Source: a virus. From it: a stretch of 64,000 bases of DNA. The notes below the pieces were generated by a model, which made no database searches, had not been told where the DNA came from, and saw only the letters and a program-made list of their open reading frames with translations. Below, piece by piece: positions 14,214 to 33,995 of the stretch (positions are counted from its first letter, which is position 1; every line of letters begins with the position of its first letter). Position numbers and translations under genes: made by a program. The stretch spans positions 7,446 through 71,445 of the IMG/VR virus record IMGVR_UViG_3300045044_000009; one strand, 5' to 3'.

Positions 14214-14921
14214 TCAGTGGTGATCGCAGACCCGGCCTCGCAGGCAACCGAGAAGGACTAGACCAACGCCGAGCAGCGCGAGGGACGCAGGCTCGGGCGC
14301 ACTGGTCTGCTGAACCTGGCAATCGACACCGAGCGTGCAAGCAAGGATGCGCGGCTGCTTCAGATCATTCCAGCCGAATTGCTGGGTGCCATTCTGCACG
14401 CTCTCGAAAATCTTCACGTCGGTGATCGCCTCGTTGGTGCCGCTCACCGCATCAACGCGGAAGAAGTTGGAACCCTGCGTCAACGTGTCAGTGAAGATGT
14501 TGCCGAAATTGTCCTCGGCAACGATGCCGACGATGCCTTCGCCAAAGTCCAGGTTGAAGATCATGGTGGTGGCCGCGACAGGCGCGACCATCCTGATCTC
14601 CAGTCCGGTCAACTGCGCACCGTTAGCGCCGCCCTGGCTGAATGGATTGCAATTCGCCGTGCAGATGATATCCGCCTGCCCCGCGCCGGTAGTGCCGATT
14701 TCCTCTGGACCGTAGGTCGAGCCGTTGCGGTTCAGGTTGAGGAACTGGACAGTGTTGGCACCCTTGTTGGTGTCGCCGCTGATGGTTCCCTGGTTCGAGG
14801 TGTGCTGCTCGAATTGCACGACATCGCCGGTCGATCCACCGGCGGCGGTGATCACAAGCGTAGCATTAGCGGCAGCAGGCAGCATGGTCGCGAAGGCACT
14901 GGCGAGTAGCAATCTGCGCAT
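14214..14921 (-). CDS. PEP-CTERM sorting-domain protein
   Basis: N-terminal signal peptide (MRRLLLASAFATMLPAAANA) and C-terminal APEPASLALLGVGLVLLGCLRGR. Confidence 0.85.
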   Translation of the reverse strand: MRRLLLASAFATMLPAAANATLVITAAGGSTGDVVQFEQHTSNQGTISGDTNKGANTVQFLNLNRNGSTYGPEEIGTTGAGQADIICTANCNPFSQGGANGAQLTGLEIRMVAPVAATTMIFNLDFGEGIVGIVAEDNFGNIFTDTLTQGSNFFRVDAVSGTNEAITDVKIFESVQNGTQQFGWNDLKQPRILACTLGVDCQVQQTSAPEPASLALLGVGLVLLGCLRGRVCDHH

Positions 14922-14937
14922 GGAACGTTCCCCCTGT

Positions 14938-16386
14938 TCACGGAGTGATCGTAAGCACCCGCACCGTCGCCGGCAAGGCGATCTGCAACGCGTCGGTGGC
15001 GCCGTGGTCCGTCTGCGCCCCAGAGAGCAGATCGGTCTCGGTGACGGTCATCCGATACGGCAGGGATACGCTCACCGTCTCCGCCTGTCCGCCCGCCTCC
15101 GGCTCGCTGTGCCAGAGGAACAGGGAGAACCTGCCGACGGCGCTCTCCGCCAGCAGCCAGTCGCAGCGCTCAGAACCTCCGGAGACCTGCACGTCCAGGC
15201 TGTCAGGCTCGAATGTCCGCCGCTCATCGTCCTTATCGGGGCAGGCGGTGCAGAGGTTGCGGATCGCCTGCGCAGCCGGACGTGGATTGCTGGCGTTCAC
15301 CGGGAACAGGCCGCAGATATACACCGTGCCGTAATCGAACAGCGCATACCACCACAGGCCGTCCACGCCGCATTTCGCCGCACGCAGCAACGCCAGCAGG
15401 GTGTAATACGCGTCCCGATCGCCGCTCCATGCCTGATTGACCGGAACCTCCGTCTTGCGTTCGCCGACCGCCGACTGACCCCGCTTCGGCCCCACGCGCT
15501 GCGCCTGTGCCGACATCGCTTGCGCCGATGGCTGATGGCCGTCCGAATTATACAGCGTCGGATGGAACTCGGTCAGCGCGATCACGTGCTGGCCATACGC
15601 CGTCCAGAGGCCGCCGACATATTCGCTGAGGCTGGTGCCGTCGCCCGTGAGATCGGGACAATGCGGCGGATAATAGTGGCCGTTGCCGATCGCCATCGCC
15701 TCGTTGACCTCGGCCATGCGGTCCCCGAAATAGCCGGTGATCCAGCCCTCCGGATGCGGCATCCCGGCGACCACGCTCGGCCCCATGGTCGGTGTGGCGT
15801 CCTTGTAGACCGCATGCTGGATCGCCATCGTCTGCTCGACCGGCACCATGCCTGAGCCGAAATCCGTGTTCGGCTCGTTCAGCCCCTCGAACCAATCGGC
15901 GAAGTCCGCCATCGACAGCATCGACGGCACATCATCCACGTTGCCGTTCGCCGCCACACAGAGGGTGATCCGCGTGTCCGGCAACGCCGCCCTGATCTGC
16001 GCCAGCCAGGGCTGCTGGAAGCTCTCGTATCCACTGTAGTGATACTCGCGCAGCCGCAGACTGTGCCCGCTGTCGTTGGTCATCCATTGCAGCGCAGCGA
16101 TCACCTGCTCCGGTCGATAATCGGCAGGCCAACTGCCCCAGCGATTATTTTCGTCCATCGAGGAGAACGTGTTGACGCCGAACGTCTCCACCACATCGGC
16201 GATGCGCATGGCCTTCGTGCCGGTCCCGGACGATGGCGGTCGGTCTGGCTCCGGTGGTTGCGGAGCGGTGCTGCCGTCCCCCTCCAACACCGCGACGCGG
16301 CCTTCCAGATCGTCCACACGGACGACCAGGGCATCGAACTCCTCGCGGGTCGGCACATCGACCTGCGGCGTCGGGCTGCGTGCCAT
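14938..16386 (-). CDS. Putative clan GH-A glycoside hydrolase with short N-terminal coiled coil
   Basis: EGLNEPN acid/base motif (15872-15880), later LTEFH candidate nucleophile, TIM-barrel-sized core and beta-rich C-terminus; N-terminal heptads REEFDALVVRVDDLEGRVAVLEG. Confidence 0.65.
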   Translation of the reverse strand: MARSPTPQVDVPTREEFDALVVRVDDLEGRVAVLEGDGSTAPQPPEPDRPPSSGTGTKAMRIADVVETFGVNTFSSMDENNRWGSWPADYRPEQVIAALQWMTNDSGHSLRLREYHYSGYESFQQPWLAQIRAALPDTRITLCVAANGNVDDVPSMLSMADFADWFEGLNEPNTDFGSGMVPVEQTMAIQHAVYKDATPTMGPSVVAGMPHPEGWITGYFGDRMAEVNEAMAIGNGHYYPPHCPDLTGDGTSLSEYVGGLWTAYGQHVIALTEFHPTLYNSDGHQPSAQAMSAQAQRVGPKRGQSAVGERKTEVPVNQAWSGDRDAYYTLLALLRAAKCGVDGLWWYALFDYGTVYICGLFPVNASNPRPAAQAIRNLCTACPDKDDERRTFEPDSLDVQVSGGSERCDWLLAESAVGRFSLFLWHSEPEAGGQAETVSVSLPYRMTVTETDLLSGAQTDHGATDALQIALPATVRVLTITP

Positions 16387-16390
16387 GGGT

Positions 16391-17269
16391 TCACTCCGTC
16401 ACGATGGGAAGCGCCACACACCGGCAGTTCCAAATCTGGCCGGGATGGCTGTGGTGGTCGGGCGGATCGGACAGCGGCGGATCATCCCAGCGCTGCACCG
16501 TGTTATTCAGCTTGCGATGGCTCTCCCGGACCCGCGCATCGCCTGCCGTCTTCCAGATATAGCTGTCCACGCCGATCGATCGCGCCCGCGCCTCGGTCAG
16601 CACGCTCGCCGTCCTGGCGGTCTCGGTGCGGGCAATCAGCGTGGCGCGGCTGCGCACCCATTCCTCCGTCGCCTTCGGATGCGCTTGCGCGAGCATGGCT
16701 TCGATTTCGGCCTGCTGCTCGGGATAGCGCGAAGCGTGGTTCAGCGCCTCGATGGTCCGTTCGTGGATCCTCTGTGCGGCTTCCAGCGGCAGGCTGGTGA
16801 TGAGTTGCACCTGATACGCCATCAGGGCCTCGACCATGCCACCGACATACGATCCGGTGCTGCGCAGTTCGGCCCGCAGCGCCGCCGACATGCCGCGCGT
16901 ATGCCGTTCCCAGGCGGTGCGGTTCCTGCGATCGACCTCAGCGATCATCCGTGCGGTCGCCGCTCTGGCCCACGGGGCGATGGCGGCGGAATACTGGCGC
17001 ATCGCATGGTCGATGCGGGCGATCTGACCGGGCTGGAACGGCTCTCCCGGTGGCGGTGCATGCGCCTCCACGATATGGGCGACGTGCTGTGCCAGACGAC
17101 GGAGCGCGGCACCGAAAGACCGCTGGGCGGCATGCTGACGGGAAAACCGCTCCTCGGCGCGCGCCTCTGCCTGCTCCCGCCGCTGGCGCTCGCGTCGCTC
17201 CCGTGGTGTCTCAGGACGCCGGGCCACTCTGCGGCACCTGATCCTTGTCATAGACCGAGACGCCGCCAT
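16391..17269 (-). CDS. Minor head / head morphogenesis protein (MuF, SPP1 gp7-like), short form
   Basis: RATLIARTET...YIWKTAGDARVRESH...HPGQIWNCRC motifs; no C-terminal extension. Confidence 0.9.
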   Translation of the reverse strand: MAASRSMTRIRCRRVARRPETPRERRERQRREQAEARAEERFSRQHAAQRSFGAALRRLAQHVAHIVEAHAPPPGEPFQPGQIARIDHAMRQYSAAIAPWARAATARMIAEVDRRNRTAWERHTRGMSAALRAELRSTGSYVGGMVEALMAYQVQLITSLPLEAAQRIHERTIEALNHASRYPEQQAEIEAMLAQAHPKATEEWVRSRATLIARTETARTASVLTEARARSIGVDSYIWKTAGDARVRESHRKLNNTVQRWDDPPLSDPPDHHSHPGQIWNCRCVALPIVTE

Positions 17270-17441
17270 CCAACGCCTGGATCGCCTTGCCCAGCCGCAT
17301 CGAAGCGTCTTCCAGGTGCCGATAAGCCAGCATGACGTTGGCGACGGCCTCGCCGTTCCATTCGTTCTGCACCAGAGGCCGCAGGCGATCAGCGGTGGAT
17401 TTGATTTCGCGCCGCAGCGCCTCGCAGTCCGCGACCTTCAT
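17211..17441 (-). CDS. Small helical-hairpin protein, possibly Acb2/Tad1-like
   Basis: 76 aa, two predicted helices; LAYRHLEDASMRLGKAI resembles the AxTxLEEAxMWxxxAI helix of Acb2/Tad1-type proteins. Confidence 0.4.
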   Translation of the reverse strand: MKVADCEALRREIKSTADRLRPLVQNEWNGEAVANVMLAYRHLEDASMRLGKAIQALDGGVSVYDKDQVPQSGPAS

Positions 17442-18994
17442 TCCTTGCCTCCTACGCTACGCAATGTCGGCTGCGGGGGCGTCCCGCCGCTCGGAGGCCG
17501 CATACCACCCGGCTGACCGCCGCCACCACCACCGAACGGTGACGGTTTGCCTTGGCCCTGTGCCCCAAGCATCCCAGGCATCCCCTGCTGCTGCGCCTCC
17601 GGGTCCCATGGTGCCGGGGCTTCCTCGCTGTCCTTGATGTCCTTGTCCGTGATGTTGGTGAACCGCCCGGTCATGATGGAATTCTGTTTGAGTTCTTTCA
17701 GGGCGATCGTCGTGGTGATGATCCCGGCGTCGTGCAGGAGTTTCAACGTATCGGCGTCGCGCTGGGCGATCTCGGCCTTGGCGTTCTCGTCCGGCTCATC
17801 GATCGATCGGAAGCCGAAGTTCCAGGTATCCGGCGGCTGCCTGCCGAGTTCGCTCTGCCACATGACCTTGAATATCCGGGTCAGCGGTCGGCGCACGCGT
17901 GCCTCCTGCGTCGCCTTGATCATGCTCTCGTAAATCCGCCAGTCGCTATCGCCCGTGGCATTCATCCCCGCAGGCGATTGTCCGAACAGGCGGGTGAGCG
18001 GAATGCCGAGTGCGCCAGCGATCTGCTGGCCGATCATCTGCAAGGTGTCGGGGACGCCTGCGAAGGAATACTGATGCGTCTCGAACTCGTCTTCCTTGTC
18101 GATGACCGTCAGGCCCTCATTGGTTTGCAGATACCGCATCAACTCCATGGTGCGATGGAAGCGCTGCTCCAATTCACCGCCGGCACCAATTAGCTTGCGG
18201 TAGCCATCTACCTTGTAGGTTCGGAGATAAGCCTTATAGAGAAGCTGGCTGGCGCCCATGGTGCCGCTGTCGAAGGCCAGCAATCGGTCGTAGAGCCGTT
18301 CGATGACGGACATGCCCCAGCCGTTTTCTGCGAGACGCTGACGGAATGGCAGGGCGATGCCGTCCATTCTGAGGATACGGCTGTAGTGGATGCGCTGCTT
18401 CGGCATGAACGGGGCCGACTGCACCACGTCATAAAAGACCGGAAGGCCATAGTCGGGTCCAAATTCCTGGATCAGGTGGCTATAGGTCGGCTGCACCATC
18501 CAACGATCCAAGACGATGAAGCCCTTCAAAGCTCCTTGTGGCACGCGTTCGGGAATGAGCGGCGTCGCCATGTCCTGGCCATCGATCGCCAACACCATCA
18601 GCGCGCCGCCATAAAGCCGGGACCATTTGATGGTCTCATTCAGACTTTGCCACAGATACAGGTTATTCATCGCCGTCTGTATCTGTTCAATCTGGTCGGG
18701 CGGCGTCTCCGAGTTCATCTGCACACCAGACCGCGTCATGTCGTCCGCCACCACATCGACCGCAGCGCCGACCACCCATGAGCCGCGATATGCCCATTCG
18801 AGCAACTGCTGAAGGCGGCTGATCGGGAAATAATTCTGCGTGGTCTCGGTCAGCAGATTGCCAGCGCCCAATCCGATGCGGGCGGCGAAATTCACCACAT
18901 TGTCCCCGACATAGATCAGCCGCTCGCCCTCGGGGTTCGCTGCGGTGCCAGCGCGCATAGTGATACGAGGCTTCGGTGGCACTTGGTCACTCAT
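17438..18994 (-). CDS. Portal protein (DUF1073 family)
   Basis: YRGSWVVGAAVDVVADDMTR...WSRLYGGA...GIPLTRLFGQSPAGMNATGDSD motifs. Confidence 0.9.
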   Translation of the reverse strand: MSDQVPPKPRITMRAGTAANPEGERLIYVGDNVVNFAARIGLGAGNLLTETTQNYFPISRLQQLLEWAYRGSWVVGAAVDVVADDMTRSGVQMNSETPPDQIEQIQTAMNNLYLWQSLNETIKWSRLYGGALMVLAIDGQDMATPLIPERVPQGALKGFIVLDRWMVQPTYSHLIQEFGPDYGLPVFYDVVQSAPFMPKQRIHYSRILRMDGIALPFRQRLAENGWGMSVIERLYDRLLAFDSGTMGASQLLYKAYLRTYKVDGYRKLIGAGGELEQRFHRTMELMRYLQTNEGLTVIDKEDEFETHQYSFAGVPDTLQMIGQQIAGALGIPLTRLFGQSPAGMNATGDSDWRIYESMIKATQEARVRRPLTRIFKVMWQSELGRQPPDTWNFGFRSIDEPDENAKAEIAQRDADTLKLLHDAGIITTTIALKELKQNSIMTGRFTNITDKDIKDSEEAPAPWDPEAQQQGMPGMLGAQGQGKPSPFGGGGGGQPGGMRPPSGGTPPQPTLRSVGGKE

Positions 18995-19319
18995 CCGCCG
19001 CCTCCTTCAGGGTTTCATCGTCCCAGATGCCGGGTCCAAGATCGGGCCAGCGCATCATGGCGTCACCGCACCGCTGGCAGAATGCCTGGAAGACCTGGAG
19101 CCTCCTGGCTTTCGGCACCGTCTGGGCAAACAGGCCGGTCACCAAGTGCCCCAGGATGGTCTCCACGCTCTCCGGGCTGAAACGCTCGCCCAGGCTCTCG
19201 GCCAGCGCCTTATAGACCGCACGCTGCGCATCCTGCCGCCATTGCTCGGTGCCACCGAGACGGTGCCTGCCGTCCCGGCGCATGACATAGGCCGGTGCAG
19301 CGAACCGAGGCGGCTTCAC
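18987..19319 (-). CDS. Hypothetical protein
   Basis: Overlap-coupled ORF between TerL and portal. Confidence 0.45.
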   Translation of the reverse strand: MKPPRFAAPAYVMRRDGRHRLGGTEQWRQDAQRAVYKALAESLGERFSPESVETILGHLVTGLFAQTVPKARRLQVFQAFCQRCGDAMMRWPDLGPGIWDDETLKEAADE

Positions 19320-19615
19320 TCCGATCGACCCATCGGCACTGCGGGAACCTTGCGGTCCTCCCAGGTAGCCAGCGGTGCCGAGAGAATGGCGAAATAGGCG
19401 GCGTCCTTGTCCTCGGCGTAATAGCCGTCCTCGATCGGCCCGGGTTTCTTCAGTCTCTCATAGCGCCAGCGCAGCTTGGGGAACGCCGCCTTCACCGCCT
19501 TCATCGACGGATAGACCTGCGGCAGGAACGCGCCGTCGCCTCCGTCGGTATAGCGCATGATCCGTATGATCCGCTCGGGCATCCGCCGATGCGCGGCATC
19601 GCTGATCCGCTTCAT
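19316..19615 (-). CDS. Hypothetical protein
   Basis: Probable start MKRISD at 19615 just after the TerL stop; 4-nt overlap with the next gene. Confidence 0.45.
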   Translation of the reverse strand: MKRISDAAHRRMPERIIRIMRYTDGGDGAFLPQVYPSMKAVKAAFPKLRWRYERLKKPGPIEDGYYAEDKDAAYFAILSAPLATWEDRKVPAVPMGRSE

Positions 19616-19652
19616 AGCACATCTGTATCCACGGGCGCCGTAGAACGCCGCC

Positions 19653-21068
19653 TCACAGCCGCAGCCATTCCGCCAGCCTTCCGTCCGCCACGAGATTGAA
19701 CGCACGTGCCGTCGCGTCGCAATCGTCGTCGTGCGGCAATTCCGGGAAGCCTTCGAGCATCTGGAACCACCGCTCGTTCCAATCGCCCCGCAGCACCAGC
19801 ACGTTGCCAGCCTCACACTGCGCTGAGAACGGGCTGAAGCGGGTGATCTTGTCGCCGGTCTCCGGGCTGAATTCCACGCTATAGCCGGCGAGCATACGCA
19901 CCATGGCACTGACCTGCGCCTTGCCTGCCTGACCGGGGTCCTGCGGGATGCCGACCTTGCACTGATAGCCGTCGTGCGACGCCATGTTCATCACCCGCCG
20001 CTCCACGTCGGCAGGAGTGCCACGGAAGGATGTGGCGTCCATGACAAGATACCGACCGTCGCCGAGCCGCCCCATCTTGACGCTGGTGGTGTAGTCTGGA
20101 TCGTTCTCGGCGGTCTCTGGCGTGGCAGCCAAGTCCCAGCCTCGCACCACGTCGAGAACCTTCGGCGCGATGTCCACCACCTGGACCCAGGCACGGTTGA
20201 AATACAGACCCGCCGAGGGACGGATCTTCCAATTGCCGTTGAGCAGTCGCTCCCGCTCGACCGCCGGCAGCATCATCAGGTTCCCCAGATATTGGGGATC
20301 GTTGCGCATCAGCGCCGGATTGTCTGATAGCTTGGCCGCGATAAACGTGGCGCTCTTGATCGTCTCCGCCGATCGACCGGTGGCTGCCATCGCCTGTCGC
20401 TTGGTGTCGAACCAGATCAACTGATCATCCGGCCCGCGCACGAAATACCGCTTGGTGCCGCTGCGCTCGGGGATCGGATAGCCGGTGACCGGGTCCCACC
20501 ACCACTGGATGAATTCCGCCACCCAACTGCCTGCGTCGGCGTTGCACGAGGCTCTGATGTATGGCCGGACGCCGGTCATGCCACGGTTTCTCGATAGCAG
20601 GTAGAAGAACTGATACCGGGTGAACGTGGTCAATTCATCGAAGCAGATGCATGGCACCTGCGAGCCGTGCCAGTCCAGCACGGTGTGCTCGTATTCCAGG
20701 TGCGACAGCTTCACCGCTCCGCCATGCGGCCATTTCCAGGACAGCGTGTGCGAGATCGGATAGGCACCTGCGTAGGGGAACAGCTTCATGCTCTCGGACC
20801 ACAGGCCACCGGGGCGGCGTATGTCGGTGGTGTTGCGGCGGAACATGACGCTATCGAAGCCGGGATACCGCTTGTCGCCTGGATAGCGCATGGCTTCCAG
20901 CATGAGTGCCCAGGACTTGCCTGAGCCGGCTGCGCCGCCGAACAGGGCGATGTCTGCGTTGCTGCTCAGGAACCGGCGCTGCGGTCCTGGCTGCGGGATG
21001 ATGCGCCGTTCGCCCTCAGGATCAGGACCGAAGTCGCGATCCATGTCCCAGGTGAAGCTGTCAGGCAT
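19653..21068 (-). CDS. terL: Terminase large subunit
   Basis: Walker A GGAAGSGKS, Walker B ICFDELT, nuclease-domain WDLA and HDDDCDA. Confidence 0.95.
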   Translation of the reverse strand: MPDSFTWDMDRDFGPDPEGERRIIPQPGPQRRFLSSNADIALFGGAAGSGKSWALMLEAMRYPGDKRYPGFDSVMFRRNTTDIRRPGGLWSESMKLFPYAGAYPISHTLSWKWPHGGAVKLSHLEYEHTVLDWHGSQVPCICFDELTTFTRYQFFYLLSRNRGMTGVRPYIRASCNADAGSWVAEFIQWWWDPVTGYPIPERSGTKRYFVRGPDDQLIWFDTKRQAMAATGRSAETIKSATFIAAKLSDNPALMRNDPQYLGNLMMLPAVERERLLNGNWKIRPSAGLYFNRAWVQVVDIAPKVLDVVRGWDLAATPETAENDPDYTTSVKMGRLGDGRYLVMDATSFRGTPADVERRVMNMASHDGYQCKVGIPQDPGQAGKAQVSAMVRMLAGYSVEFSPETGDKITRFSPFSAQCEAGNVLVLRGDWNERWFQMLEGFPELPHDDDCDATARAFNLVADGRLAEWLRL

Positions 21069-21451
21069 CGCCGCGCCGCTTTGCGCCGTCCGCCGTCCAC
21101 GACAGCGTGTGACTGATGCTCGGCCTGGGTGGATCGCCGGTCAAATCCGCCGTGGCGACCTCGCCTCGCATGCCCATGTGCGCCTTGATACTCTTGGGTC
21201 CGATGCCGCCGAGATTGATGCGGCGACCTGTGCGCTTGCCCTTGTGGCTGCCGCCCTTGCCTGCCTTCATACGCCCCATCCGTGATATTTGGGCGGGGCG
21301 AACCAGCCGGGAGCCAGATGCACCGCCCATTCCGGGACGCCGACACCGCCTTGCTGGCGGATGAAGGTGTTGGTCCAGCGGTCGGTATCGCTCAGCTTCT
21401 TGGTCGGATCGTCGCAGACCAGCTTGCCCCTGCGATGGTTGCCGTCCGTCG

Positions 21452-21772
21452 TCAGATGCCGAGTAAGCGGTTGACGGTCATCCATATCGGCTCCCCAGGC
21501 CGTTGTGCGCATTTCACCAGTTCAGCAGCGGCGGGCGAGACGTTCAAGGTGGCCCTCGGTGGGTCGCCTCGCTTCGTCCTGACGTTGGCCAATGCCAGTG
21601 CCACGGCGTCCTCCGGCAGCCCCATCTCCTCGGCGACCTCCCATATCTCCAGGCCGGTCTGTCGCCACTGCTTTGCCCGTCTGCGCTGCTCCGGTGTGAG
21701 GATCAGATCGGCACGGATTGCCAGTGTGGCTTTGGCGGTATCGCCGGCATGTGCGCCGACATCGCGTCTCAT
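21452..21772 (-). CDS. Small HTH-containing protein
   Basis: GLEIWEVAEEMGLPEDAV helix-turn-helix pattern; coupled to TerS. Confidence 0.5.
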   Translation of the reverse strand: MRRDVGAHAGDTAKATLAIRADLILTPEQRRRAKQWRQTGLEIWEVAEEMGLPEDAVALALANVRTKRGDPPRATLNVSPAAAELVKCAQRPGEPIWMTVNRLLGI

Positions 21773-22170
21773 GCTGCCTCCTCTGCGGTGCCCTCGATCA
21801 TCGGTGCGTCATCATCGTCCGGTTGATCCCGGCCATTCGACGGCATGTAGAACCTGACCGTTTCGCCTTGCTGGGTCACGGTGCCGGGCGGTGGGTCGTC
21901 GTCATCCTTCACCCGCCATTCCTTGTAGTGGACCGACATCCAGTATTTGGCTGCGTTCAGATCGCCGCCCAGACCTTTCTTGACGATCGCCGCCGCCATA
22001 CGCGCCTTGATGTGCTCACGGGCGTTCTCGAAGTCCTTGCGGTAATACCGTCGCAGCGTGGCTGGTGAGATGCCGAGGATTTCGGCGATGACCTCGTGGG
22101 AGATGGCATTCGCCGAGAGGACCTTGACCAATTGTCGGCTGTCCTCGGTGGCCAAGTGTCGCGCTACCAT
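21769..22170 (-). CDS. terS: Terminase small subunit
   Basis: HEVIAEILGISPATLRRYY HTH followed by GDLNAAKYWM; upstream of TerL. Confidence 0.75.
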   Translation of the reverse strand: MVARHLATEDSRQLVKVLSANAISHEVIAEILGISPATLRRYYRKDFENAREHIKARMAAAIVKKGLGGDLNAAKYWMSVHYKEWRVKDDDDPPPGTVTQQGETVRFYMPSNGRDQPDDDDAPMIEGTAEEAA

Positions 22171-22211: not shown

Positions 22212-22553
22212 ATGAGTTCCCGTATCAAGCGACCGCCGCTGTTCATGCCGCTGCGCAGCCGTTGGTTCGATGCGTTCGCCTGGGGCGTGCGGACGGAAGA
22301 ATGGCGCAGGCTCGGTCCTCGGCACAACCTGGAGACCTGCGTGCCGGGACGGGGCGTCATCCTGTCGCGTGGCTATGGCGGCCCAAGGCTGCGCGCCAGG
22401 ATCGCCTCGGTGCGTGTGGCACAGTCGGACGACAACGAAGGCGCCCGTGCCGTCTACGGTCCTGCGGTGGCGTGCGTGGTGCTGGCCCTCTCCGACATCC
22501 GACCGATCAAGCGCCGAGCGACCTCGCGGTCTTCCATCGCCGGGCCGCAATAG
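22212..22553 (+). CDS. ASCH/PUA-like domain protein
   Basis: LFMPLRSRWFDAFAWGVRTEEWRR...VILSRGYG matches the ASCH LxLxxxWFDxIxxGxKTxExR signature; convergent with and overlapping the ATPase-GNAT gene. Confidence 0.6.
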   Translation: MSSRIKRPPLFMPLRSRWFDAFAWGVRTEEWRRLGPRHNLETCVPGRGVILSRGYGGPRLRARIASVRVAQSDDNEGARAVYGPAVACVVLALSDIRPIKRRATSRSSIAGPQ

Positions 22554-23617
22554 GCAAAGTTGGCGTTGGGCCGTCCACCAAAGCCTCGGCGGGGAACACG
22601 GGGGTTGATGGACGGCTTGAGGTTCGGCGTCGAGATACCTGGTTTCTTGTGCAGCCGCCAGTTGGGACTGCGGTCGAAGGCTCGGGTGAACGACGGATGC
22701 GCCGTCGGCATGTGATAGCGGTAGCCGATCGCCTTGAACGCCGAGGCGATGGTGTCGTTGAGCACGAAGGCCAGACCGAGGCCCTGGAAGTCTGGCAGGG
22801 TCACGAGGCGCGACACGCCGAAGATGTCGTCGGCTTTCACCGCAGGCCGCCACATCACGCCGAGGAAGGCAGCCGGCTCTCCGTTGACGCTGAGCACGAA
22901 GCACCGGGCATTCACATGCAGGTTGGCGGTCAGATAGTGAAAGCGAGAGAAGGGTATCCAGGCAGAATGGGCAACGCGCTGGATCGTGCAATGGAGCGCT
23001 GGTCGCCGTAAAACCGACCTCCATCGGAAGGTCATGGTCGCCGGCTCAAGGATCCAGTCCGGCTGAAGCCATTCTTCCAGGTCGAAGTGACAGGTGGCTG
23101 CGACGAAGCGGTGGCTCGGGTCCTGCCGGATGTATTTCGCCACCGCGTGTGCGCCGATCTGTGCCACCTGACGGTCCACGACGGAGGTGAATTCGTCGCA
23201 CAGGACCAGATCGCCGCCTTCCAGCAGCCGCCGAGCGAGGTCTACACGGAACCGCTCCCCGTTGCTGAGCACGCCATACGGACGCAGCCATGCCGGTATG
23301 GTGTTGAAGCCGACAGCTTGGCAGATACGTGCCAGCGCTTCAATCGTGATCGAGGGGTCGAAGTCATCGATCACCGACGGCGCTTGCCATGCGAAGTCCA
23401 GAGGCTCGCCGAAGGTCTGGCGCAGGATGGTGCTCTTGCCTGATCCAGACGGTCCGACGATCAGACCGATCTGCCAGGGTTTCAGATCGATCGGCAGTTC
23501 GCCGTGCCATTCCAGGTGTGCGCGGTCGGCAGCCGGCACATCGAACATCGATGACACCTGCTGGGCGCGGATGGACGTGGAGATCGGGGTGTCCACGGCG
23601 ATGTCGATACGTGGCAT
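22454..23617 (-). CDS. ABC-class ATPase fused to GNAT acetyltransferase
   Basis: GPSGSGKST, LSNGE, DEFTS ABC motifs; C-terminal VSRLVTLPDFQGLGLA acetyl-CoA-binding motif; no transmembrane partner nearby. Confidence 0.85.
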   Translation of the reverse strand: MPRIDIAVDTPISTSIRAQQVSSMFDVPAADRAHLEWHGELPIDLKPWQIGLIVGPSGSGKSTILRQTFGEPLDFAWQAPSVIDDFDPSITIEALARICQAVGFNTIPAWLRPYGVLSNGERFRVDLARRLLEGGDLVLCDEFTSVVDRQVAQIGAHAVAKYIRQDPSHRFVAATCHFDLEEWLQPDWILEPATMTFRWRSVLRRPALHCTIQRVAHSAWIPFSRFHYLTANLHVNARCFVLSVNGEPAAFLGVMWRPAVKADDIFGVSRLVTLPDFQGLGLAFVLNDTIASAFKAIGYRYHMPTAHPSFTRAFDRSPNWRLHKKPGISTPNLKPSINPRVPRRGFGGRPNANFAYCGPAMEDREVARRLIGRMSERASTTHATAGP

Positions 23618-23619
23618 GG

Positions 23620-26237: not shown

Positions 26238-26273
26238 CCCCGCTACGCCGAGTAGCGGGGATTTCGTGTGCTC
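26238..26273 (+). repeat. GCCGA-loop hairpin element, copy 2
   Basis: Perfect 9-bp stem ccccgctac/gtagcgggg, loop gccga, then atttcgtgtgctc. Confidence 0.8.
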
Positions 26274-26335
26274 GCACACCTGCGAGCTATTGAACAAAAG
26301 GACAAGAGTATGACTACCAAGAACCGGGCGTCGCC

Positions 26336-26812: not shown

Positions 26813-26821
26813 GAACGGAAA

Positions 26822-26857
26822 CCCCGTCGCGCCGAGCGGCGGGGATTTCGTGTGCTC
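26822..26857 (+). repeat. GCCGA-loop hairpin element, copy 3
   Basis: ccccgtcgc-gccga-gcggcgggg then atttcgtgtgctc, directly followed by the TTGAACAAAGGAC leader. Confidence 0.8.
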
Positions 26858-26880
26858 ATTGAACAAAGGACCAAATCACC

Positions 26881-27252: not shown

Positions 27253-27358
27253 ACACAGATGGCAGCGTCCGAAAGGGCGCTGTAATGGGCCACGCGTCCT
27301 GCGTGCCGGTCCACAGCCCGGATCAAACCATTCCATTGAACAAAGGACCAACCGACTA

Positions 27359-27655
27359 ATGTCTGCCAAGAACCATCCGTTTACCGTCGTGCTGATTGAG
27401 GGCAACGACAACGCGTCTCCGCATGAAATGGCGACCGAACCTGTGGTCTCCGTCGTGCGCGTATTCGCGAAGGGCAAAAGATCAGCCGTGACGGCTGCGG
27501 TCAAACAGGTCTCCGATGAAATCGCCGCAGGTTGCAGCGATAACGAAGATCCTGCCGAAATCCTGAGCGATTACCGCTGGCTGCCGATCGCGATATTTCG
27601 GGGTCATCCCGACGATCTCGCGGACGGCACCACATATGACTGGATGACCGCATAG
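27359..27655 (+). CDS. Hypothetical early protein
   Basis: ATG after the TTGAACAAAGGAC leader. Confidence 0.65.
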   Translation: MSAKNHPFTVVLIEGNDNASPHEMATEPVVSVVRVFAKGKRSAVTAAVKQVSDEIAAGCSDNEDPAEILSDYRWLPIAIFRGHPDDLADGTTYDWMTA

Positions 27656-27785
27656 AGTAGAGGCGACCTGCGACCGAGCGGGCCACGATGCGCGAGCGTC
27701 GTCGCCCCCTCGGCCTGGGCCGCAGTTGGCTACAGGGGCGACCGCCGAGCGCGGCGTCTAGCGTTGAACAAAAAGGACCAAAGCT

Positions 27786-28145
27786 ATGGCTACCAAGAAC
27801 ACTGCCCAGACTGCACCGCTGTCTCCGATCCAGAAGATGGCGGCTCGTGGGTTCGACCTCTTGCAGCGTGCCAACGGTGTCACGCGTGCGGAGTTGGTCG
27901 AACTGGGCAAGTCAGGCGGCGCGATCGGTTGGAAGAAGTATCTGACCATAATCGCTGCCAAGCAGGGTTTCGGCGACGAAGCCGTGAAGTCCTCCGACAT
28001 CGTGGAGGACGGCTACATCGTCGGCACCCGCTACACTCTCGCTGCCAAGAAGAAGGCGGCGAAGGTGGCGGCGACGCGCACCGCTTCGGCGGGACGCAAG
28101 GTCGCGGCAAAGAAGTCCGCTGCGAAGCGGACGCGTCGCGGCTGA
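27786..28145 (+). CDS. Winged-helix-like paralogue with histone-H1-like Ala/Lys tail
   Basis: LLQRANGVTRAEL...GWKKYL core, then AAKKKAAKVAATRTASAGRKVAAKKSAAKRTRRG. Confidence 0.7.
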   Translation: MATKNTAQTAPLSPIQKMAARGFDLLQRANGVTRAELVELGKSGGAIGWKKYLTIIAAKQGFGDEAVKSSDIVEDGYIVGTRYTLAAKKKAAKVAATRTASAGRKVAAKKSAAKRTRRG

Positions 28146-28167
28146 CCACACCAGTCTGACAGAAATC

Positions 28168-28196
28168 GGCGGGGGCTTCGGCTCCCGCCTTTTTTT
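28168..28196 (+). terminator. Rho-independent terminator
   Basis: ggcgggggc-ttcg-gctcccgcc followed by T7. Confidence 0.9.
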
Positions 28197-28327
28197 GTGT
28201 TCATGCGGTGGATACAAAACCATCCACGGCAGACAGTGTGCATACGAATGTGTCCCCTAGATAGAAGCATCGTGCGCGGTGCTTCTACCTCGGGTGACCG
28301 AGGGTCCAAGAACAGAAAGGACCATGC

Positions 28328-28837
28328 ATGCCAGACTTCAAGTCCATGAAAGACTTGTGGAACGAAACCTGGGCGTCACGCGATGAAGGCGAAACCGAAT
28401 TGAAGAAGGCTGGTTTCCCTGTATCGAGCGACGATCACGAATTAGGCGAGATAGGCGACGGTCGATGGCATCTGCGCAAGCCACTTGCGAAGAAGGCCAG
28501 CGGTCCGAAGCCCGGTCGCGAGACGTTGCGCAAGAAGGCGGCGCGGATGGCACAGGCAGATGAGCAAGCGCCCGCGTTCGCACAGGAGCCGGAGCCGAAG
28601 AAGAAGGCGAAGGCGCCTGCGAAGAAGGAGCGCGCTGTGCCGAAGCTGGACGCGATTGCCCGAGAGGGCGTTGAACTGGCGAAGCGCAAGCAGGGCGTTC
28701 CACGGCCTGATTTGCTGAAGCTCAACGATAACATCGGGTGGAAGTCCTATCTCGCACGCTACGGCAAGCGCGAAGGCTTGCGCGTAGAGGTCGAGAAGAA
28801 CAAGGACGACGTTATCGTCTACAAACTGGTCAAGTAG
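28328..28837 (+). CDS. Early protein with C-terminal winged-helix-like paralogous domain
   Basis: C-terminal LAKRKQGVPRPDL...IGWKSYL...VYKLVK matches paralogues 1-3; Lys/Ala-rich linker. Confidence 0.7.
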   Translation: MPDFKSMKDLWNETWASRDEGETELKKAGFPVSSDDHELGEIGDGRWHLRKPLAKKASGPKPGRETLRKKAARMAQADEQAPAFAQEPEPKKKAKAPAKKERAVPKLDAIAREGVELAKRKQGVPRPDLLKLNDNIGWKSYLARYGKREGLRVEVEKNKDDVIVYKLVK

Positions 28838-28847
28838 CCGAAACTCG

Positions 28848-28907
28848 GACGGAGTGGGCGCGGCATCTGCGGGTGTCGTGGCCCACTCCGCCTCAGTTTC
28901 GCTGGGG
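28848..28907 (+). repeat. Two-hairpin intergenic element (GA-stem1-stem2), copy A
   Basis: GA cggagtgggc...gcccactccg | cctcag-tttcg-ctgggg. Confidence 0.75.
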
Positions 28908-28951
28908 CCGCCGTAGAACGGCGGGGATTTAGAGCAGAAAGGTTATGCACC

Positions 28952-29185
28952 ATGAAACCCGACAAATCGGCGGGCGGTCGCTATTGGATGGGCAGTCAGC
29001 CCGAGCAATGCGACCTCTGCCAAGCGCCGCTGGACGGCGAGTTCGTTGACGGTGCCACAGTGCGTGGTCCGTGGGCGATGATGTGCGTCAAGTGTCATCG
29101 CATGTTTGGTCACGGCCTCGGAATGGGTCGCGGCCAGAGATATGAACTCGGCGATCAGGATCGCTGGTGGAAGACGGGAGGCTGA
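28952..29185 (+). CDS. Small zinc-finger protein
   Basis: CDLC...CVKCH. Confidence 0.65.
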   Translation: MKPDKSAGGRYWMGSQPEQCDLCQAPLDGEFVDGATVRGPWAMMCVKCHRMFGHGLGMGRGQRYELGDQDRWWKTGG

Positions 29186-29361
29186 CATGATGACAGTCGA
29201 TGAAGCCCGGCGGATTTGGAAGAGACTGCCGACGCCAGAAATCGAGGCAGAAGCCGAACGTCTAGTCGGAGAGGCACTGGATCACGGCTACGAACTCGAT
29301 CTGTCCGATCTGCTGTTCCTGGCCTTTTCCGCTGGCTTGAACGCCGCCGACAAGAACGCCT

Positions 29362-29424
29362 GACCCGAGAGGCGCGCATCCGAACAGGGTGCGTTGCCTC
29401 TCGGGCCTGTCGTTCACCGACAGG
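29362..29424 (+). repeat. Two-hairpin intergenic element, copy B
   Basis: GA cccgagaggc...gcctctcggg | cctgtcg-ttcac-cgacagg; both basal stems perfect. Confidence 0.8.
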
Positions 29425-29450
29425 GTTTCCGAACACGAAAGGACACGACT

Positions 29451-29813
29451 ATGGCAAGACCTGCCAAACCAAACCTTGATGCCTTGCTCCATCAACTGAA
29501 GCTGGCGTCCAACTCCGCACGCTCGGCGGTCCACGCCATGCAACTGCGTCAGTTGGAGCTTAACGAGCGGCAGATGCTTTCGCTGACCAACATGGCGGAA
29601 GAACTGATGGAGACGCGTCGTCGGTGCTTTGTATTGGCGACCGCCACCAGTGATCGCCTGTATGGCATCGTGGTTCCGAGTGCCGCCCGTTCCGGGTCGA
29701 TTGTCCACGCCCTGTCCCCTCGCGAGATCGATCGCAGGCGGCGCAAGGCGAAGGTGCCACCGACGAAGGAACAGGCCGAGCGTGACACCACACGGCGCAG
29801 CGCTCGCAGATAA
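29451..29813 (+). CDS. Hypothetical early protein
   Basis: ATG after the GAACACGAAAGGAC leader. Confidence 0.6.
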   Translation: MARPAKPNLDALLHQLKLASNSARSAVHAMQLRQLELNERQMLSLTNMAEELMETRRRCFVLATATSDRLYGIVVPSAARSGSIVHALSPREIDRRRRKAKVPPTKEQAERDTTRRSARR

Positions 29814-30059
29814 ACGGCACGAACGAGGACGGAGAAGACGTGAGTATGTCTATGGGGGAACTAGACATCAGGCGGCAATCGCGGCGGTTCGCTTTGTCGC
29901 TGCAATTGGATCAGCAGATCAGACGGAGCCGGGCGCTCCGTGTCTGGTCTGACATGCTCCGAATGGAAGCGGTGCAGGCGATCCTGCGATCGATCGAAGC
30001 CTGCACCGAAGCCAGACTTGCACGCCTGGGCAGGACGAAGAACCTGCCAGACTGACCGT

Positions 30060-30121
30060 GACGGAGCGGGCCTGCGTGGCAACGCGCAGCGCCCCCTCCG
30101 CCTCAGCCAGTCGGCTTGAGG
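30060..30121 (+). repeat. Two-hairpin intergenic element, copy C
   Basis: GA cggag...(GCAA loop)...ctccg | cctcagcc-agtc-ggcttgagg. Confidence 0.75.
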
Positions 30122-30155
30122 ACGTGCCTACCATTGAACAAAGGAACTACGGACT

Positions 30156-30647
30156 ATGAGTGAAACTACCACACCAGAGATATGCTCGATTTGCGGACGC
30201 CCGATCCCTCTTGTGGGAGATTGGGCGCATGGCGACAACGCTATGCCAATCACCGATGGACGTTGCTGCGGCGATTGCAATCAGAACATCGTCGTTCCGG
30301 AGCGGCTGAAGCGGATGCGAACCAAACAGGACCCGCGTCAAGTTAAGCCGTTTCATCCATTCCCCGGCACCGACGAACAGGTGGCGAAGGGGTGGATGAA
30401 TATCCTGCTGGAGCCGGAAGGCGACGGCGCTGCGGGCTACACTCAGCCATGCCCAGTGTGGCTGAATACCGCAGAGGTCCACAATCTGATTGTGATCTTG
30501 CAGAAGGATATCGATGGCCGTTCCTACTATGCCGAAGACGGCACGTATCTGCACGCCAAGCGGATGCTGGTCGAATTAGCAGAGAAGCTGGATGCGTCGT
30601 TTAAGTCGGCGCTCCGGGGTCACTATCGGGACGGACGGCGGCGATGA
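30156..30647 (+). CDS. Zinc-finger-containing early protein
   Basis: CSIC...CCGDC; leader motif upstream. Confidence 0.65.
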   Translation: MSETTTPEICSICGRPIPLVGDWAHGDNAMPITDGRCCGDCNQNIVVPERLKRMRTKQDPRQVKPFHPFPGTDEQVAKGWMNILLEPEGDGAAGYTQPCPVWLNTAEVHNLIVILQKDIDGRSYYAEDGTYLHAKRMLVELAEKLDASFKSALRGHYRDGRRR

Positions 30648-30928
30648 GATCACATTACTTCCTGATCGAGCATCCCACACGCGGCGTGTATTACTCGACC
30701 GAATACGAGTTCCATCCGCGTGGCTCTGTGCCGAAACATCACTTCTCCTGGTCCAAGCCGCGCACCGATCCTGGCATGAAGAGGTTCTACAACCTCGAAG
30801 AAGCCAAGCGGGTGTGCAGTTTGATGATGATCCGGGGATGCTACGTGCTCGAACTTTTCCGCGAGCGCGGCAAGCATCCGGTTCGTCATGTGCCGACCAA
30901 GGATGGATGGGTCGAGCGTAGCGACTGA
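30644..30928 (+). CDS. Hypothetical early protein
   Basis: ATGA-coupled to the upstream gene. Confidence 0.55.
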   Translation: MRSHYFLIEHPTRGVYYSTEYEFHPRGSVPKHHFSWSKPRTDPGMKRFYNLEEAKRVCSLMMIRGCYVLELFRERGKHPVRHVPTKDGWVERSD

Positions 30929-30932
30929 CCGT

Positions 30933-30989
30933 GACGGGGACGGCGCAGGCGAAAGTCTGTGGCCGTCGCCGCCTGGGCCAGTGTCCAGG
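30933..30989 (+). repeat. Two-hairpin intergenic element, copy D
   Basis: GA cgg...gacggc-gcaggc-gaaa-gtctgt-ggccgtc...ccg | cctgg...ccagg. Confidence 0.7.
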
Positions 30990-31028
30990 CACGCGTGAGC
31001 GTGTGAACAGGAAAGGACAAACTACACG

Positions 31029-31538
31029 ATGAAAGCCATTTTCATCGATGCCGTTAAGCAGGAATTCCGTGAGGTCGAATATGACGCCCTGGCATCCGCC
31101 AGCGGTGCCCCGACCATGCAGGATCACCTGGGAGGCTGGATCGACTGCGCTTTCCGGTTTCCGAACGGCGATGTGCTCTATGTGGACGAGGAAGGGTATC
31201 TGAAACCGACGATGCACTTTTTCATCTGCTCATTCCGCGCCGACCAGCCGATGGCTGGATGCGGAATAATTGTAGGCCGGGAAGTCGAGGACGACGATGC
31301 GCCGGGCGGGTTCTACACCCTTCCGCCGCAGACCAAGATCGACTGGCTGAAACGCAACATCGCCTGGATGACCCGCGAGGGTTTCGACCACTGGATGTCG
31401 CTGCACAAAGACGATCCTGCCGGTTACATCAAGATCGTGAATAGCAAGGGCGAGGTGGTTCGCACCGAAGTCCTGCACACGTATGGCGAACTGCATGACG
31501 GCATGAAGAAGGAGGCGGACAATGATACCGGGGCGTGA
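31029..31538 (+). CDS. DUF3846-like protein
   Basis: MKAIFID...LGGWID...GDVLYVDEEG.LK...MAGCGIIVG. Confidence 0.65.
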   Translation: MKAIFIDAVKQEFREVEYDALASASGAPTMQDHLGGWIDCAFRFPNGDVLYVDEEGYLKPTMHFFICSFRADQPMAGCGIIVGREVEDDDAPGGFYTLPPQTKIDWLKRNIAWMTREGFDHWMSLHKDDPAGYIKIVNSKGEVVRTEVLHTYGELHDGMKKEADNDTGA

Positions 31539-31941
31539 CAATCCAGACCTCGGCAATCAGATCCGTCGCCATCGCGAGCGGGCGAAACTGACCCGTTTCC
31601 AACTCGCCGAAAAGCTGGGCTGTTCCGACGCATTCATCGCCATGATTGAGCGCGGTAAGGGAAGGCCGGGACCGGACATCTACAATGGGTTGGTCGAGAT
31701 ATTCAACCACCCCGAGGTGGCCGAGCCTGCGACGCGTGTGCCGTTCAACGAGCGGGCGCAGGCAGCGGCGATACTGCACGAGCAGGATGGCATCCTGCGA
31801 CAGCAGCAAGAGGCCAGAGAGGTCACCGCCTTGCGCGAATTGACCGCTCGGGCAAGCGAGGTTCTGTCACTCGAAACCCTGATCCAGATGATTGTGGAGA
31901 AAGGCTACGAGGTGACGGTGACGAAGCGGACTTCGTCGTAG
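31522..31941 (+). CDS. XRE-family HTH DNA-binding protein
   Basis: IRRHRERAKLTRFQLAEKLGCSDAFIAMIERG; no S24 peptidase domain. Confidence 0.75.
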   Translation: MIPGRDNPDLGNQIRRHRERAKLTRFQLAEKLGCSDAFIAMIERGKGRPGPDIYNGLVEIFNHPEVAEPATRVPFNERAQAAAILHEQDGILRQQQEAREVTALRELTARASEVLSLETLIQMIVEKGYEVTVTKRTSS

Positions 31942-31954
31942 CGTTCCTGACCAG

Positions 31955-32019
31955 GACCAGAGCACCCCATGCAGCGATGCGTGGCGGTGCTGTGGCCTCG
32001 GCCAGACAATCTGCCGGGG
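31955..32019 (+). repeat. Two-hairpin intergenic element, copy E
   Basis: GA ccagagcacc...(GCGA loop)...ggtgctgtgg | cctcggc...gccgggg. Confidence 0.75.
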
Positions 32020-32053
32020 ACTTCACATTGAACCAGAGAGGACACTACACACC

Positions 32054-33223
32054 ATGGCTAAGAAGCCAGACAAGCGTGACAAGAGAGGACCCACGCTTGC
32101 CGACCGTGTGCTGGCTAGGACGCTTTCGGCGCATGAGAAAATCATCCATCCGAAGACCTACGACCAGCTTATGCAAGGCGTCCGCAGCGCCCACCGTTTC
32201 GTCTTTGACGAAGAGGCGGCGCGGCGGGTCGCCCAGGTCGTGCTGGACATCCCCTCGTTGTTGGTTCGCGAGCATGGCTTTGCCCGCGCGCCATTCGAGG
32301 TCACCTGGATCGAGTATCCTTCATACGCATACTGGAACAGGCTGCACGACGCCGACCCGGAACGCTATACCGGGCAAGGCGAATGGGGCGACAAATCGAC
32401 CGCCGATCACACGGTCGGCTACCTGATCGACCACAACCGCATCAACACGTTCGTTGGCGGCACGGTGACGGAGCCTGATCTGCTGCCGGATATCACGCCG
32501 ATGCAGTATCGGCTGCGCACCGAGTGGGATGTCAACGACCAGATCGAGTTCGCTCGGCTGGTCGGGTGCTCCCGCATGATGCTGGACATGATCATGTGGG
32601 GCAGCACCTATGACGTGCTGTCCGACGACGAACGCAGGCTGCTCCGTGCCTACAACGTGATGGAGCAGACGCCGCTGAACCCGAGCCATCGCACATATCA
32701 CACCCTGACGGCAGATGCCGGCATGGGGGCGGCAGCGCGTGGCTCGGTCGGCGACATGCGCACCATCATCGCCCTGCTGTTGATGCTCAACCGACCGTCG
32801 CTGACCACCTACAAGCAGACATTGCCCAATTCGCACGGGTTCATCCGTGGCAAATACCGGGCGTATCTGAACCATACGACAGTGACGATTGCGATCGATC
32901 CGGTGCCGACCCTACGATTGGTCGGGACGCCTGCCGGTGACGCGGTGGCGCGTCGCAGACATGAGGTGCGCGGTCACTACGCGCACAACAGGGAAGCGCG
33001 AGACTATGCCAAGATCGCCGGTTGCATCCACAATTTCGAGCCGAACCACGGACCGCCCAAGTGGCTGCCGTGGCCCGATGCCGGACCTGACGACCCGGAC
33101 AATTGGGTGTGCTCGGAATGCGGCGGCAAGCGCTGGTGGATACCGGAGCACGAGCGTGGGGACGAAAGCCTCGGCTACGTCATCCACGACGAATACAATG
33201 TGGTCCGTCGCCATAAATACTGA
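32054..33223 (+). CDS. Uncharacterised phage protein with C-terminal RRHEVRGH and CxxC motifs
   Basis: 389-aa ORF with leader motif; RRRHEVRGHYAH, CSECGG, WWIPEHERG. Confidence 0.7.
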   Translation: MAKKPDKRDKRGPTLADRVLARTLSAHEKIIHPKTYDQLMQGVRSAHRFVFDEEAARRVAQVVLDIPSLLVREHGFARAPFEVTWIEYPSYAYWNRLHDADPERYTGQGEWGDKSTADHTVGYLIDHNRINTFVGGTVTEPDLLPDITPMQYRLRTEWDVNDQIEFARLVGCSRMMLDMIMWGSTYDVLSDDERRLLRAYNVMEQTPLNPSHRTYHTLTADAGMGAAARGSVGDMRTIIALLLMLNRPSLTTYKQTLPNSHGFIRGKYRAYLNHTTVTIAIDPVPTLRLVGTPAGDAVARRRHEVRGHYAHNREARDYAKIAGCIHNFEPNHGPPKWLPWPDAGPDDPDNWVCSECGGKRWWIPEHERGDESLGYVIHDEYNVVRRHKY

Positions 33224-33227
33224 TCCT

Positions 33228-33292
33228 GACGGAAACAGCGGCGCCCGTAGAACGCGGGCGTCGGCTGCTTCCGCCTCGATCAGAGATCGAGG
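33228..33292 (+). repeat. Two-hairpin intergenic element, copy F
   Basis: GA cggaa.cagc...gctg.ttccg | cctcgatc-aga-gatcgagg. Confidence 0.75.
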
Positions 33293-33332
33293 GCATCGGC
33301 ATAGTGCCGGTGTGACAGAGGGAAAACACCAT

Positions 33333-33995
33333 ATGAAGAAAGCACTGCTAGCCGCAAGTGTGCTCGGCGGGATGGCGCTTGCCGTCTCGCCTGTGCATGC
33401 TGGTCAGATCATCAATTTTGCCCAGGTGGGCAATGCCTCTGATGTGACGGCCACGGACACCGCTGGGGTGACAACCATCTCCATCAGCGGCGCTCTGGTG
33501 ACGGTATCGGCTATCTCCCCAGATAGCTCGATCTCTGCGCCAGTGGCGGCAGACGTGACGTTGAATGCCACGAGCATCGATGCCGCCCAGGCTATCGGGG
33601 CGTCGATCTTGCAGCACTACAGCGGCACGTTCTCGGTGACGACGGCGGTTGGCGGCGTCAACCTCCTGAGCGGTTCCTTCACTGACGCGGCGTTTGGCGC
33701 TGGTGGCGGTCCTGGTCTGGTGGTGAACGTCAACAATCCGCCTGACACCCTGAACTTCAACAGTGCGACGATACCGGCGAAGGATTTGCTACCGCCGTCA
33801 TCGTTGAACTTTGGGTTCACGGCGTTGACGAACCCGCTGGCGATCGTCAACGGGTCGATCGGTAGCTTTGGCGCGGCCTTCATCGGCAACGCCAGTGCCA
33901 CCCCGCAGGCTGCGGCTCCGGAGCCTGCGACGCTCGGGCTGCTCGGTGTCGGTCTGCTTGGCACCGTCGCACTCGCGCGCCGTCGTCGCGCCTAA
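33333..33995 (+). CDS. PEP-CTERM sorting-domain protein
   Basis: Start MKKALLAASVLGGMALAVSPVHA (signal peptide); C-terminal APEPATLGLLGVGLLGTVALARRRRA. Confidence 0.9.
   Translation: MKKALLAASVLGGMALAVSPVHAGQIINFAQVGNASDVTATDTAGVTTISISGALVTVSAISPDSSISAPVAADVTLNATSIDAAQAIGASILQHYSGTFSVTTAVGGVNLLSGSFTDAAFGAGGGPGLVVNVNNPPDTLNFNSATIPAKDLLPPSSLNFGFTALTNPLAIVNGSIGSFGAAFIGNASATPQAAAPEPATLGLLGVGLLGTVALARRRRA

Follow-up and report, generated by a model that had tools for sequence, protein, structure and literature searches.

Can a tailed phage that lacks an exosortase place proteins of its own on the host surface through the PEP-CTERM/exosortase sorting route? This question is raised by a 64,000-nucleotide (nt) stretch of viral DNA, hereafter the window, which comprises bases 7446-71445 of the 75,005-base-pair (bp) IMG/VR virus record IMGVR_UViG_3300045044_000009 and contains two genes, P0001 and P0002, whose products carry PEP-CTERM tails. 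Many environmental Gram-negative bacteria use PEP-CTERM/exosortase sorting; to our knowledge, few of its substrates have been characterised and it has no known viral users. The record is linear, has 62% G+C and is 100% complete by CheckV estimate, and the presence of genes for a large terminase (TerL), portal, MuF and prohead protease identifies it as a tailed phage. With somewhat more confidence than doubt, we infer the export, processing, location and effect of the two proteins as follows: both would be exported by Sec and recognised at their PEP-CTERM tails by an exosortase of the host, and would modify the infected cell's surface or slime layer.

Identification of two phage-encoded PEP-CTERM proteins

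The two genes and their sorting signals, with signal peptides read from the sequence, are as follows (aa, amino acids).

14214-14921, minus strand: P0001 gene, 235 aa, family A2, with signal peptide, predicted jelly-roll body containing four cysteines, and PEP-CTERM tail
14862-14921, minus strand: P0001 signal peptide, aa 1-20, basic then hydrophobic, ending in ANA before T
14217-14300, minus strand: P0001 PEP-CTERM tail, aa 208-235, with PEP, hydrophobic helix and R-G-R
33333-33995, plus strand: P0002 gene, 220 aa, family A1, with signal peptide, predicted closed beta-barrel body, and PEP-CTERM tail
33333-33401, plus strand: P0002 signal peptide, aa 1-23, MKK and a hydrophobic core, ending in VHA before G
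33915-33992, plus strand: P0002 PEP-CTERM tail, aa 195-220, with PEP, hydrophobic helix and RRRR

Agreement among open reading frames (ORFs), hidden Markov models (HMMs) and structural models upholds a preliminary description of this DNA, according to which each gene encodes a signal peptide, a beta-rich body and a PEP-CTERM tail. A Shine-Dalgarno sequence, GGGGGA, lies 8 nt upstream of the P0001 ATG, and another, GAGGG, lies upstream of P0002. The signal peptides were judged by inspection (basic n-region, hydrophobic core and AxA-type site), and the N-terminal signal pattern is conserved across the A1 and A2 alignments. The mature body is rich in G, T and N in P0001 and in A, S, G and T in P0002.

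P0002 exceeds both curated cut-offs (TIGR02595, 22.9 bits against 16; PF07589, 27.7 bits against 20.7), and P0001 exceeds that of PF07589 (21.2 vs 20.7 bits). A six-frame scan of the whole record with PF07589 identified exactly two places above the cut-off, namely P0002 (31.8 bits, 33912-33986) and P0001 (24.1 bits, 14232-14300), and the same scan of 14 control genomes gave 0/14 at the cut-off; chance is therefore excluded. The tails end 0-4 residues past the basic cluster, and the models place helices at residues 198-219 of P0002 and 212-234 of P0001. An alternative annotation of the P0002 locus as two antisense ORFs, based on third-codon-position G+C (GC3), was ruled out by 89 homologous loci that match the sense frame.

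No exosortase (PF09721) is encoded anywhere in the 75,005-bp record, so the earlier observation that none was in view holds for the complete genome. The same combination was found when 50 related viral records were surveyed, of which 11 have direct terminal repeats and 22 are 90% complete or better: PF07589 exceeded its cut-off in 43/50, about 18 of which carry two such genes, mostly arranged in tandem, and exosortase did so in 0/50. Use of a host exosortase would be the most economical reading, well supported but indirect, because the xEP motif is invariant (E197/P198 in A1; E210/P211 in A2), signal peptides are present and the phages have no exosortase.

Conservation and viral distribution of families A1 and A2

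More than 312 full-length homologues were found for A1, the family of P0002, and 29 for A2, the family of P0001; the family alignments hold 28-29 members each. Ratios of nonsynonymous to synonymous substitution (dN/dS) against the nearest homologues are 0.24-0.28 in both, and A1 and A2 are, on these comparisons, conserved families under purifying selection. Within IMG/VR, tblastn confirmed 105 places for A1 (two peptide patterns used) and 8 for A2. About 90 viral loci, genomes with terminal repeats included, contain members of the families, and none of these loci encodes an exosortase; independently looked-up contexts are all phage-like, with small ORFs, ERF, Gp157, Acb2/Tad1, sheath initiator, tail-fibre peptidase S74, helicases and HNH. 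In the ESM Atlas, 91% of the 171 members of the nearest cluster are labelled Viruses. No homologue was found among cultured-phage records, and no P0002 homologue among plasmid records. In addition, one conserved A1 motif had no relative when 185,579 bacterial and archaeal species were scanned for A1, one genome per species. A1 and A2 occur predominantly on viral contigs.

These data bear on the view that the genes are mere passengers, that is, host PEP-CTERM genes recently captured or mis-assembled and without a phage role, which is very unlikely. Elsewhere, PEP-CTERM proteins are known from chromosomal genes, the nearest predicted structures to both models in AlphaFold DB are cellular PEP-CTERM proteins, and a further ESM Atlas look-alike cluster is labelled 100% Bacteria (mostly Planctomycetota); however, both genes lie deep inside phage modules, and their wide viral recurrence, their dN/dS and the missing A1 relatives in species genomes all speak against recent capture. 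No contig among those of the best 120 A1 homologues is longer than 83 kb. A weak further point is that parts of 14000-22000, a stretch in which P0001 but not P0002 lies, occur in five other soil metagenome runs from five separate studies (word shares 0.80-0.10). The preliminary description regarded PEP-CTERM genes as chromosomal, and this does not hold for A1 and A2, which are not chromosomal genes borrowed by a single phage; its proposal that the phage uses the host exosortase survives in that the proteins are phage-encoded, keep an invariant xEP and come without a phage exosortase.

A motif-plus-HMM classification of 93 loci fetched for comparison (L004, L005, L008, L011, L049, L063 and L098 are labels of such loci) assigned the PEP-CTERM ORFs to A1 (87), A2 (14) or neither (about 16). 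Most of those in neither carry a Cys motif and were treated as a third family, characterised by a length of about 230-260 aa, a signal peptide and a motif of the C-P-D-C-V-I-N-P type just before the PEP tail, with the gene usually directly downstream of an A1 gene. Examples, among others, are the following.

L005, 8745-9449: third-family gene
L008, 10621-11412: third-family gene
L049, 8027-8725: third-family gene
L063, 4776-5519: third-family gene

Tandem PEP-CTERM pairs are common; three or more distinct phage lineages have A1 with A2, and many have A1 with the third family. The present genome is unusual, as its A1 and A2 genes lie 19 kb apart in separate transcription blocks, the head operon and the early region. 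The position of A1 varies among phages, from just upstream of TerL to after the major capsid gene, beside a 389-aa early gene or after the ERF module. Terminator-like sites are 4.9 times commoner after PEP-CTERM genes (11/79) than after control ORFs (19/591; p = 2.6e-4). Because of this variable position, the terminator enrichment and the family conservation, the PEP-CTERM genes appear to behave as a mobile, moron-like cassette kept by selection in phages.

Predicted structures of the two bodies

AlphaFold2 models built from the family alignments have predicted local distance difference test (pLDDT) values of 85 (P0002) and 86 (P0001), and both bodies are modelled as all-beta. Profile-profile alignment of the two families spans the C-terminal 59 columns only, which correspond to the tail; the bodies are thus unrelated by sequence profile, consistent with their reported dissimilarity. 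P0002 is modelled as a small closed beta-barrel, with structural matches that are generic only (Z of 8.0 or less), and P0001 as a jelly roll. With Foldseek, neither model had a match in the PDB at E <= 0.001. A predicted complex of the P0001 and P0002 bodies scored 0.00, which carries no weight either way.

The best solved neighbour of the P0001 model is a putative Aeromonas salmonicida carbohydrate-binding module (CBM), 9q5u_A (Z 8.7), on which residues about 30-199 superpose with a root-mean-square deviation of 3.7 A over 141 residues; of the neighbours at Z 5-6.4, most are CBM and discoidin-type domains. P0001 resembles CBMs (CBM15, 22, 29, 32; discoidin) in this respect and differs from them in that identity is 3-14%, the Z values lie within the range that common folds reach by chance, and no binding-site residues were identified in P0001. 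Because the Z values are middling, carbohydrate binding by the modelled P0001 body is a lead rather than a finding. In A2, C195 and C201, which lie shortly before the PEP motif, are invariant, and many members have another Cys pair; judged by alignment, these conserved cysteines fit an oxidising, extracytoplasmic location.

Comparison with known systems

Bacterial cargo of the PEP-CTERM/exosortase (EpsH, Xrt) system is represented by TIGR02595 and PF07589 (Haft et al. 2006, PMC1569441, as cited in PMC4886054). P0001 and P0002 share with such cargo the signal peptide, PEP, hydrophobic helix, terminal basic cluster and small beta-rich body, and differ in being encoded by phages without an exosortase or exopolysaccharide (EPS) locus, in families found mainly on viral contigs. 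A closer comparison is offered by PepA (NF033554), the flocculation-associated PEP-CTERM protein of Zoogloea and Aquincola, which raises cell-bound and lowers soluble exopolysaccharide (PMC9850573). The phage proteins are of similar size, and weak matches to the PepA model extend beyond the tail (P0001 residues 18-229, P0002 residues 78-219), with A1 members reaching E = 6e-12; PepA genes, unlike those of the phage, are chromosomal, sigma-54-regulated and located next to prsK/prsR/prsT. Membership of PepA itself was rejected, as P0001 (23.5 bits) and P0002 (28.7 bits) fall far below the 80-bit cut-off.

Other named families were tried and likewise rejected. Against the FxDxF family (NF038126), 24/29 A1 members match at E <= 0.01 (best 1.5e-10), but P0002 scores 18.6 bits against a cut-off of 50 and the A1 motif is F-T-D-A-A-F, not FxDxF. 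Scores for THxN, EDSAP-1, XDP1 and other named PEP-CTERM subfamilies are far below their cut-offs, and MYXO-CTERM gave 15.9 against 20.

Among phages, morons and envelope proteins that block superinfection or protect progeny include T5 Llp and lambda Lom and Bor, which follow lipoprotein or beta-barrel outer-membrane routes; we know of no phage envelope protein that takes the exosortase route. The PEP-CTERM genes resemble morons in encoding small exported proteins at variable sites between conserved phage genes, often with their own terminator, and are unlike these examples in their proposed exosortase route and in that most carriers here lack an integrase.

Full-text searches found no paper in which tailed phages carry PEP-CTERM proteins as cargo; a PEP-CTERM domain in a mobile element of Dehalococcoides is mentioned in one preprint. 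New here are the two or three body families with their folds, the recurrent pairing and the absence of exosortase in 50 records, together with the conserved A1 motif without relatives in species genomes and the split early/late arrangement.

Genomic context and transcription

The head block on the minus strand runs in the order TerL, portal, MuF-like protein, a 482-aa protein, P0001 and prohead protease, and P0002 lies in an early-type block on the plus strand, in accordance with the late and early assignment made previously. The features concerned are listed below.

19653-21068, minus strand: large terminase (TerL)
17438-18994, minus strand: portal
16391-17269, minus strand: MuF-like head morphogenesis protein
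14938-16386, minus strand: 482-aa clan GH-A-like glycoside hydrolase candidate without signal peptide, proposed from ESM Atlas look-alikes
11196-13307, minus strand: DUF2213 prohead protease fused to an ADP-ribosyltransferase domain
33224-33332, plus strand: structured leader of three hairpins, 109 nt, between the 389-aa gene and P0002
34021-34054, plus strand: intrinsic-terminator-like hairpin (10 pairs) with T run, 26 nt after the P0002 stop

P0001 starts 16 nt past the stop of the upstream 482-aa gene and no terminator for it was found at the locus; given this gap, the missing terminator and its good Shine-Dalgarno sequence, it looks co-transcribed with the head genes. This location, and the fact that A1 genes adjoin TerL or the major capsid gene in other phages, might point to a virion protein, and an N-terminal signal with a C-terminal transmembrane helix is also the layout of u-spanins such as the unimolecular spanin of phage T1, which would bridge the membranes at lysis. 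Such a head-associated or spanin-like role is scarcely credible, since signal peptides are incompatible with cytoplasmic capsid assembly, the bodies are globular beta domains of 170-185 residues rather than extended linkers, an invariant xEP motif would be needless for a spanin, and gene position varies instead of being tied to a lysis cassette. Assignment to the unimolecular spanins (T1 gp11 type) was rejected, as neither signal peptide has a lipobox cysteine, or any cysteine at all.

The 482-aa protein has an N-terminal coiled-coil-like stretch and had no sequence match in Pfam, PHROG or PDB; its look-alikes in the ESM Atlas form clusters of cellulase/GH5/GH39/GH42 type (score 0.92, TM 0.62-0.70), and homologues with 45-50% identity lie between portal and MuF in other PEP-CTERM-bearing phages. 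On this predicted fold, it may be a polysaccharide depolymerase of the head module.

A different use of the same signals would be as decoys or inhibitors, which occupy the host exosortase, or are retained in the inner membrane through their C-terminal helix, and shut down or rewire EPS-protein sorting, for example to loosen the matrix for release. The evidence from signal architecture applies equally here, P0001 stands beside a glycoside-hydrolase-like gene, and most carriers lack an integrase, so that action would fall in productive infection, a stage at which it could be profitable to block assembly of the host surface. This explanation is nevertheless improbable, because a tail alone would suffice and two or three unrelated, well-folded, conserved bodies would be needless, and because the A2 cysteines and the CBM-like fold point to an extracytoplasmic domain that binds a ligand.

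P0002 lies in a plus-strand block of small genes, whose homologues in L004 carry helix-turn-helix (HTH) and DUF3846 domains, and this block is flanked by a gene for a Toprim/DnaB-type primase-helicase and one for an ERF recombinase. The leader has a minimum free energy of -58.6 kcal/mol (z = -5.9 vs shuffles), and the homologous L004 spacer keeps two of its hairpins, partly conserved and partly compensated. The leader and terminator previously ascribed to P0002 were thus both found.

Upstream of this leader lies the gene for the 389-aa protein, which has no known family and ends in a Cys-rich ribbon. It adjoins an A1 PEP-CTERM gene in three phages, with gene order swapped in L011.

Window, 32054-33223, plus strand: 389-aa protein
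L004, 3385-4542: 389-aa protein homologue
L011, 10772-11920: 389-aa protein homologue

Proposed mechanism and its significance

In the reading favoured here, in which the host exosortase is used, P0002 would be a self-contained early-type cassette with a structured leader and its own terminator, and P0001 would be made with the head genes, directly after the glycoside-hydrolase-like gene. Both would be exported by Sec and then handed to the host exosortase, so that the phage routes two of its own proteins into the envelope- and exopolysaccharide-associated protein pathway of a Gram-negative host. By analogy with PepA, the proteins probably reside in the outer envelope or slime layer and alter what it binds; candidate effects are binding or retention of exopolysaccharide, masking of receptors against further phage, sparing of progeny from debris, and aggregation or the retention of infected cells in aggregates. 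Because few carriers have an integrase, the benefit would probably arise during productive infection.

Several observations weigh against this reading. The tail of P0001 is borderline, as it falls 0.4 bit below the TIGR02595 cut-off (15.6 vs 16) while passing PF07589, and the canonical tails claimed for both proteins were therefore borne out by TIGR02595 for P0002 only; its basic cluster is also weak, with just R-G-R and a protein end of CDHH. Structural matches are of middling quality (Z 8.7 or less) and reveal nothing of function. Tyrosine integrase, which is absent from the 75,005-bp record, was found in only 7/50 related records, and with so few carriers the classical rationale of lysogenic conversion is not directly applicable. 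No sigma-70-like promoter was found for P0001 or P0002; of the features of a moron, P0002 has the terminator and the variable position, and P0001 has neither promoter nor terminator. In one soil metatranscriptome run containing 9% of words, a single identical 280-nt contig maps to 32851-33130, inside the 389-aa gene; it covers neither P0001 nor P0002, and no evidence of their expression was seen there.

The host is a further point of this kind. Host searches gave no host, so an exosortase there is presumed, and all runs containing this DNA are soil metagenomes. No tRNA genes were found in the record, megablast against phages gave no match, and the sole match to TerL in a scan of species genomes, at 48%, was in a Clostridium prophage. 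Identity of the head genes to their counterparts in Burkholderia, Bordetella and Acinetobacter phages is 50-60%, and TerL shares 56% identity with the enzyme of Rhizobium phages; such similarities loosely suggest phages of Pseudomonadota, and their looseness also counts against the proposal.

A more specific version is put forward tentatively, as one that may well fail: soil phages would carry a phage-specific, usually two-gene PEP-CTERM cassette (A1 with A2 or the third family) that hijacks the host exosortase and decorates exopolysaccharide, here split between early and late regions.

If the use of host exosortase by the phage is true, it would represent a previously undescribed route of phage-driven surface modification, which could exclude superinfection, protect progeny from debris or induce aggregation. 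If routine, exosortase would be a phage host factor and a marker for predicting the hosts of uncultured soil phages, the compact conserved phage proteins would be convenient probes of how exosortase cargo is recognised and released, and phages may actively influence, in soils and sludge, how exopolysaccharide is retained, how cells flocculate and how susceptible they are to phage.

Additional features of the genome

Several other genes of the record are listed below.

45089-45748, minus strand: 219-aa protein with a ribosome modulation factor (RMF) domain (PF04957, 34.7 bits vs cut-off 27.9)
about 2184-11248 of the record (G000:C1), minus strand: single ORF of 3021 aa, with its 3' part at 3-3803 of the window
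22454-23617, minus strand: ABC-type ATPase P-loop fused to a GNAT acetyltransferase region (phrog_11143, E = 7e-92)
36477-37526, plus strand: 349-aa early protein

RMF is largely a gammaproteobacterial protein, and the RMF-domain protein is a possible clue to the host as well as a possible phage tool to silence ribosomes. The 3021-aa ORF adjoins head and neck genes, and its fragments match several related phages at 30-60% identity. The ABC-ATPase/GNAT gene is located just upstream of the packaging genes. A homologue of the 349-aa early protein (L004, 7419-8492) has a weak AcrVA2-like match (PF26125), and the related PEP-CTERM phages L005 and L098 also have Acb2/Tad1-hairpin genes; the early regions of PEP-CTERM phages therefore appear to be rich in anti-defence candidates.

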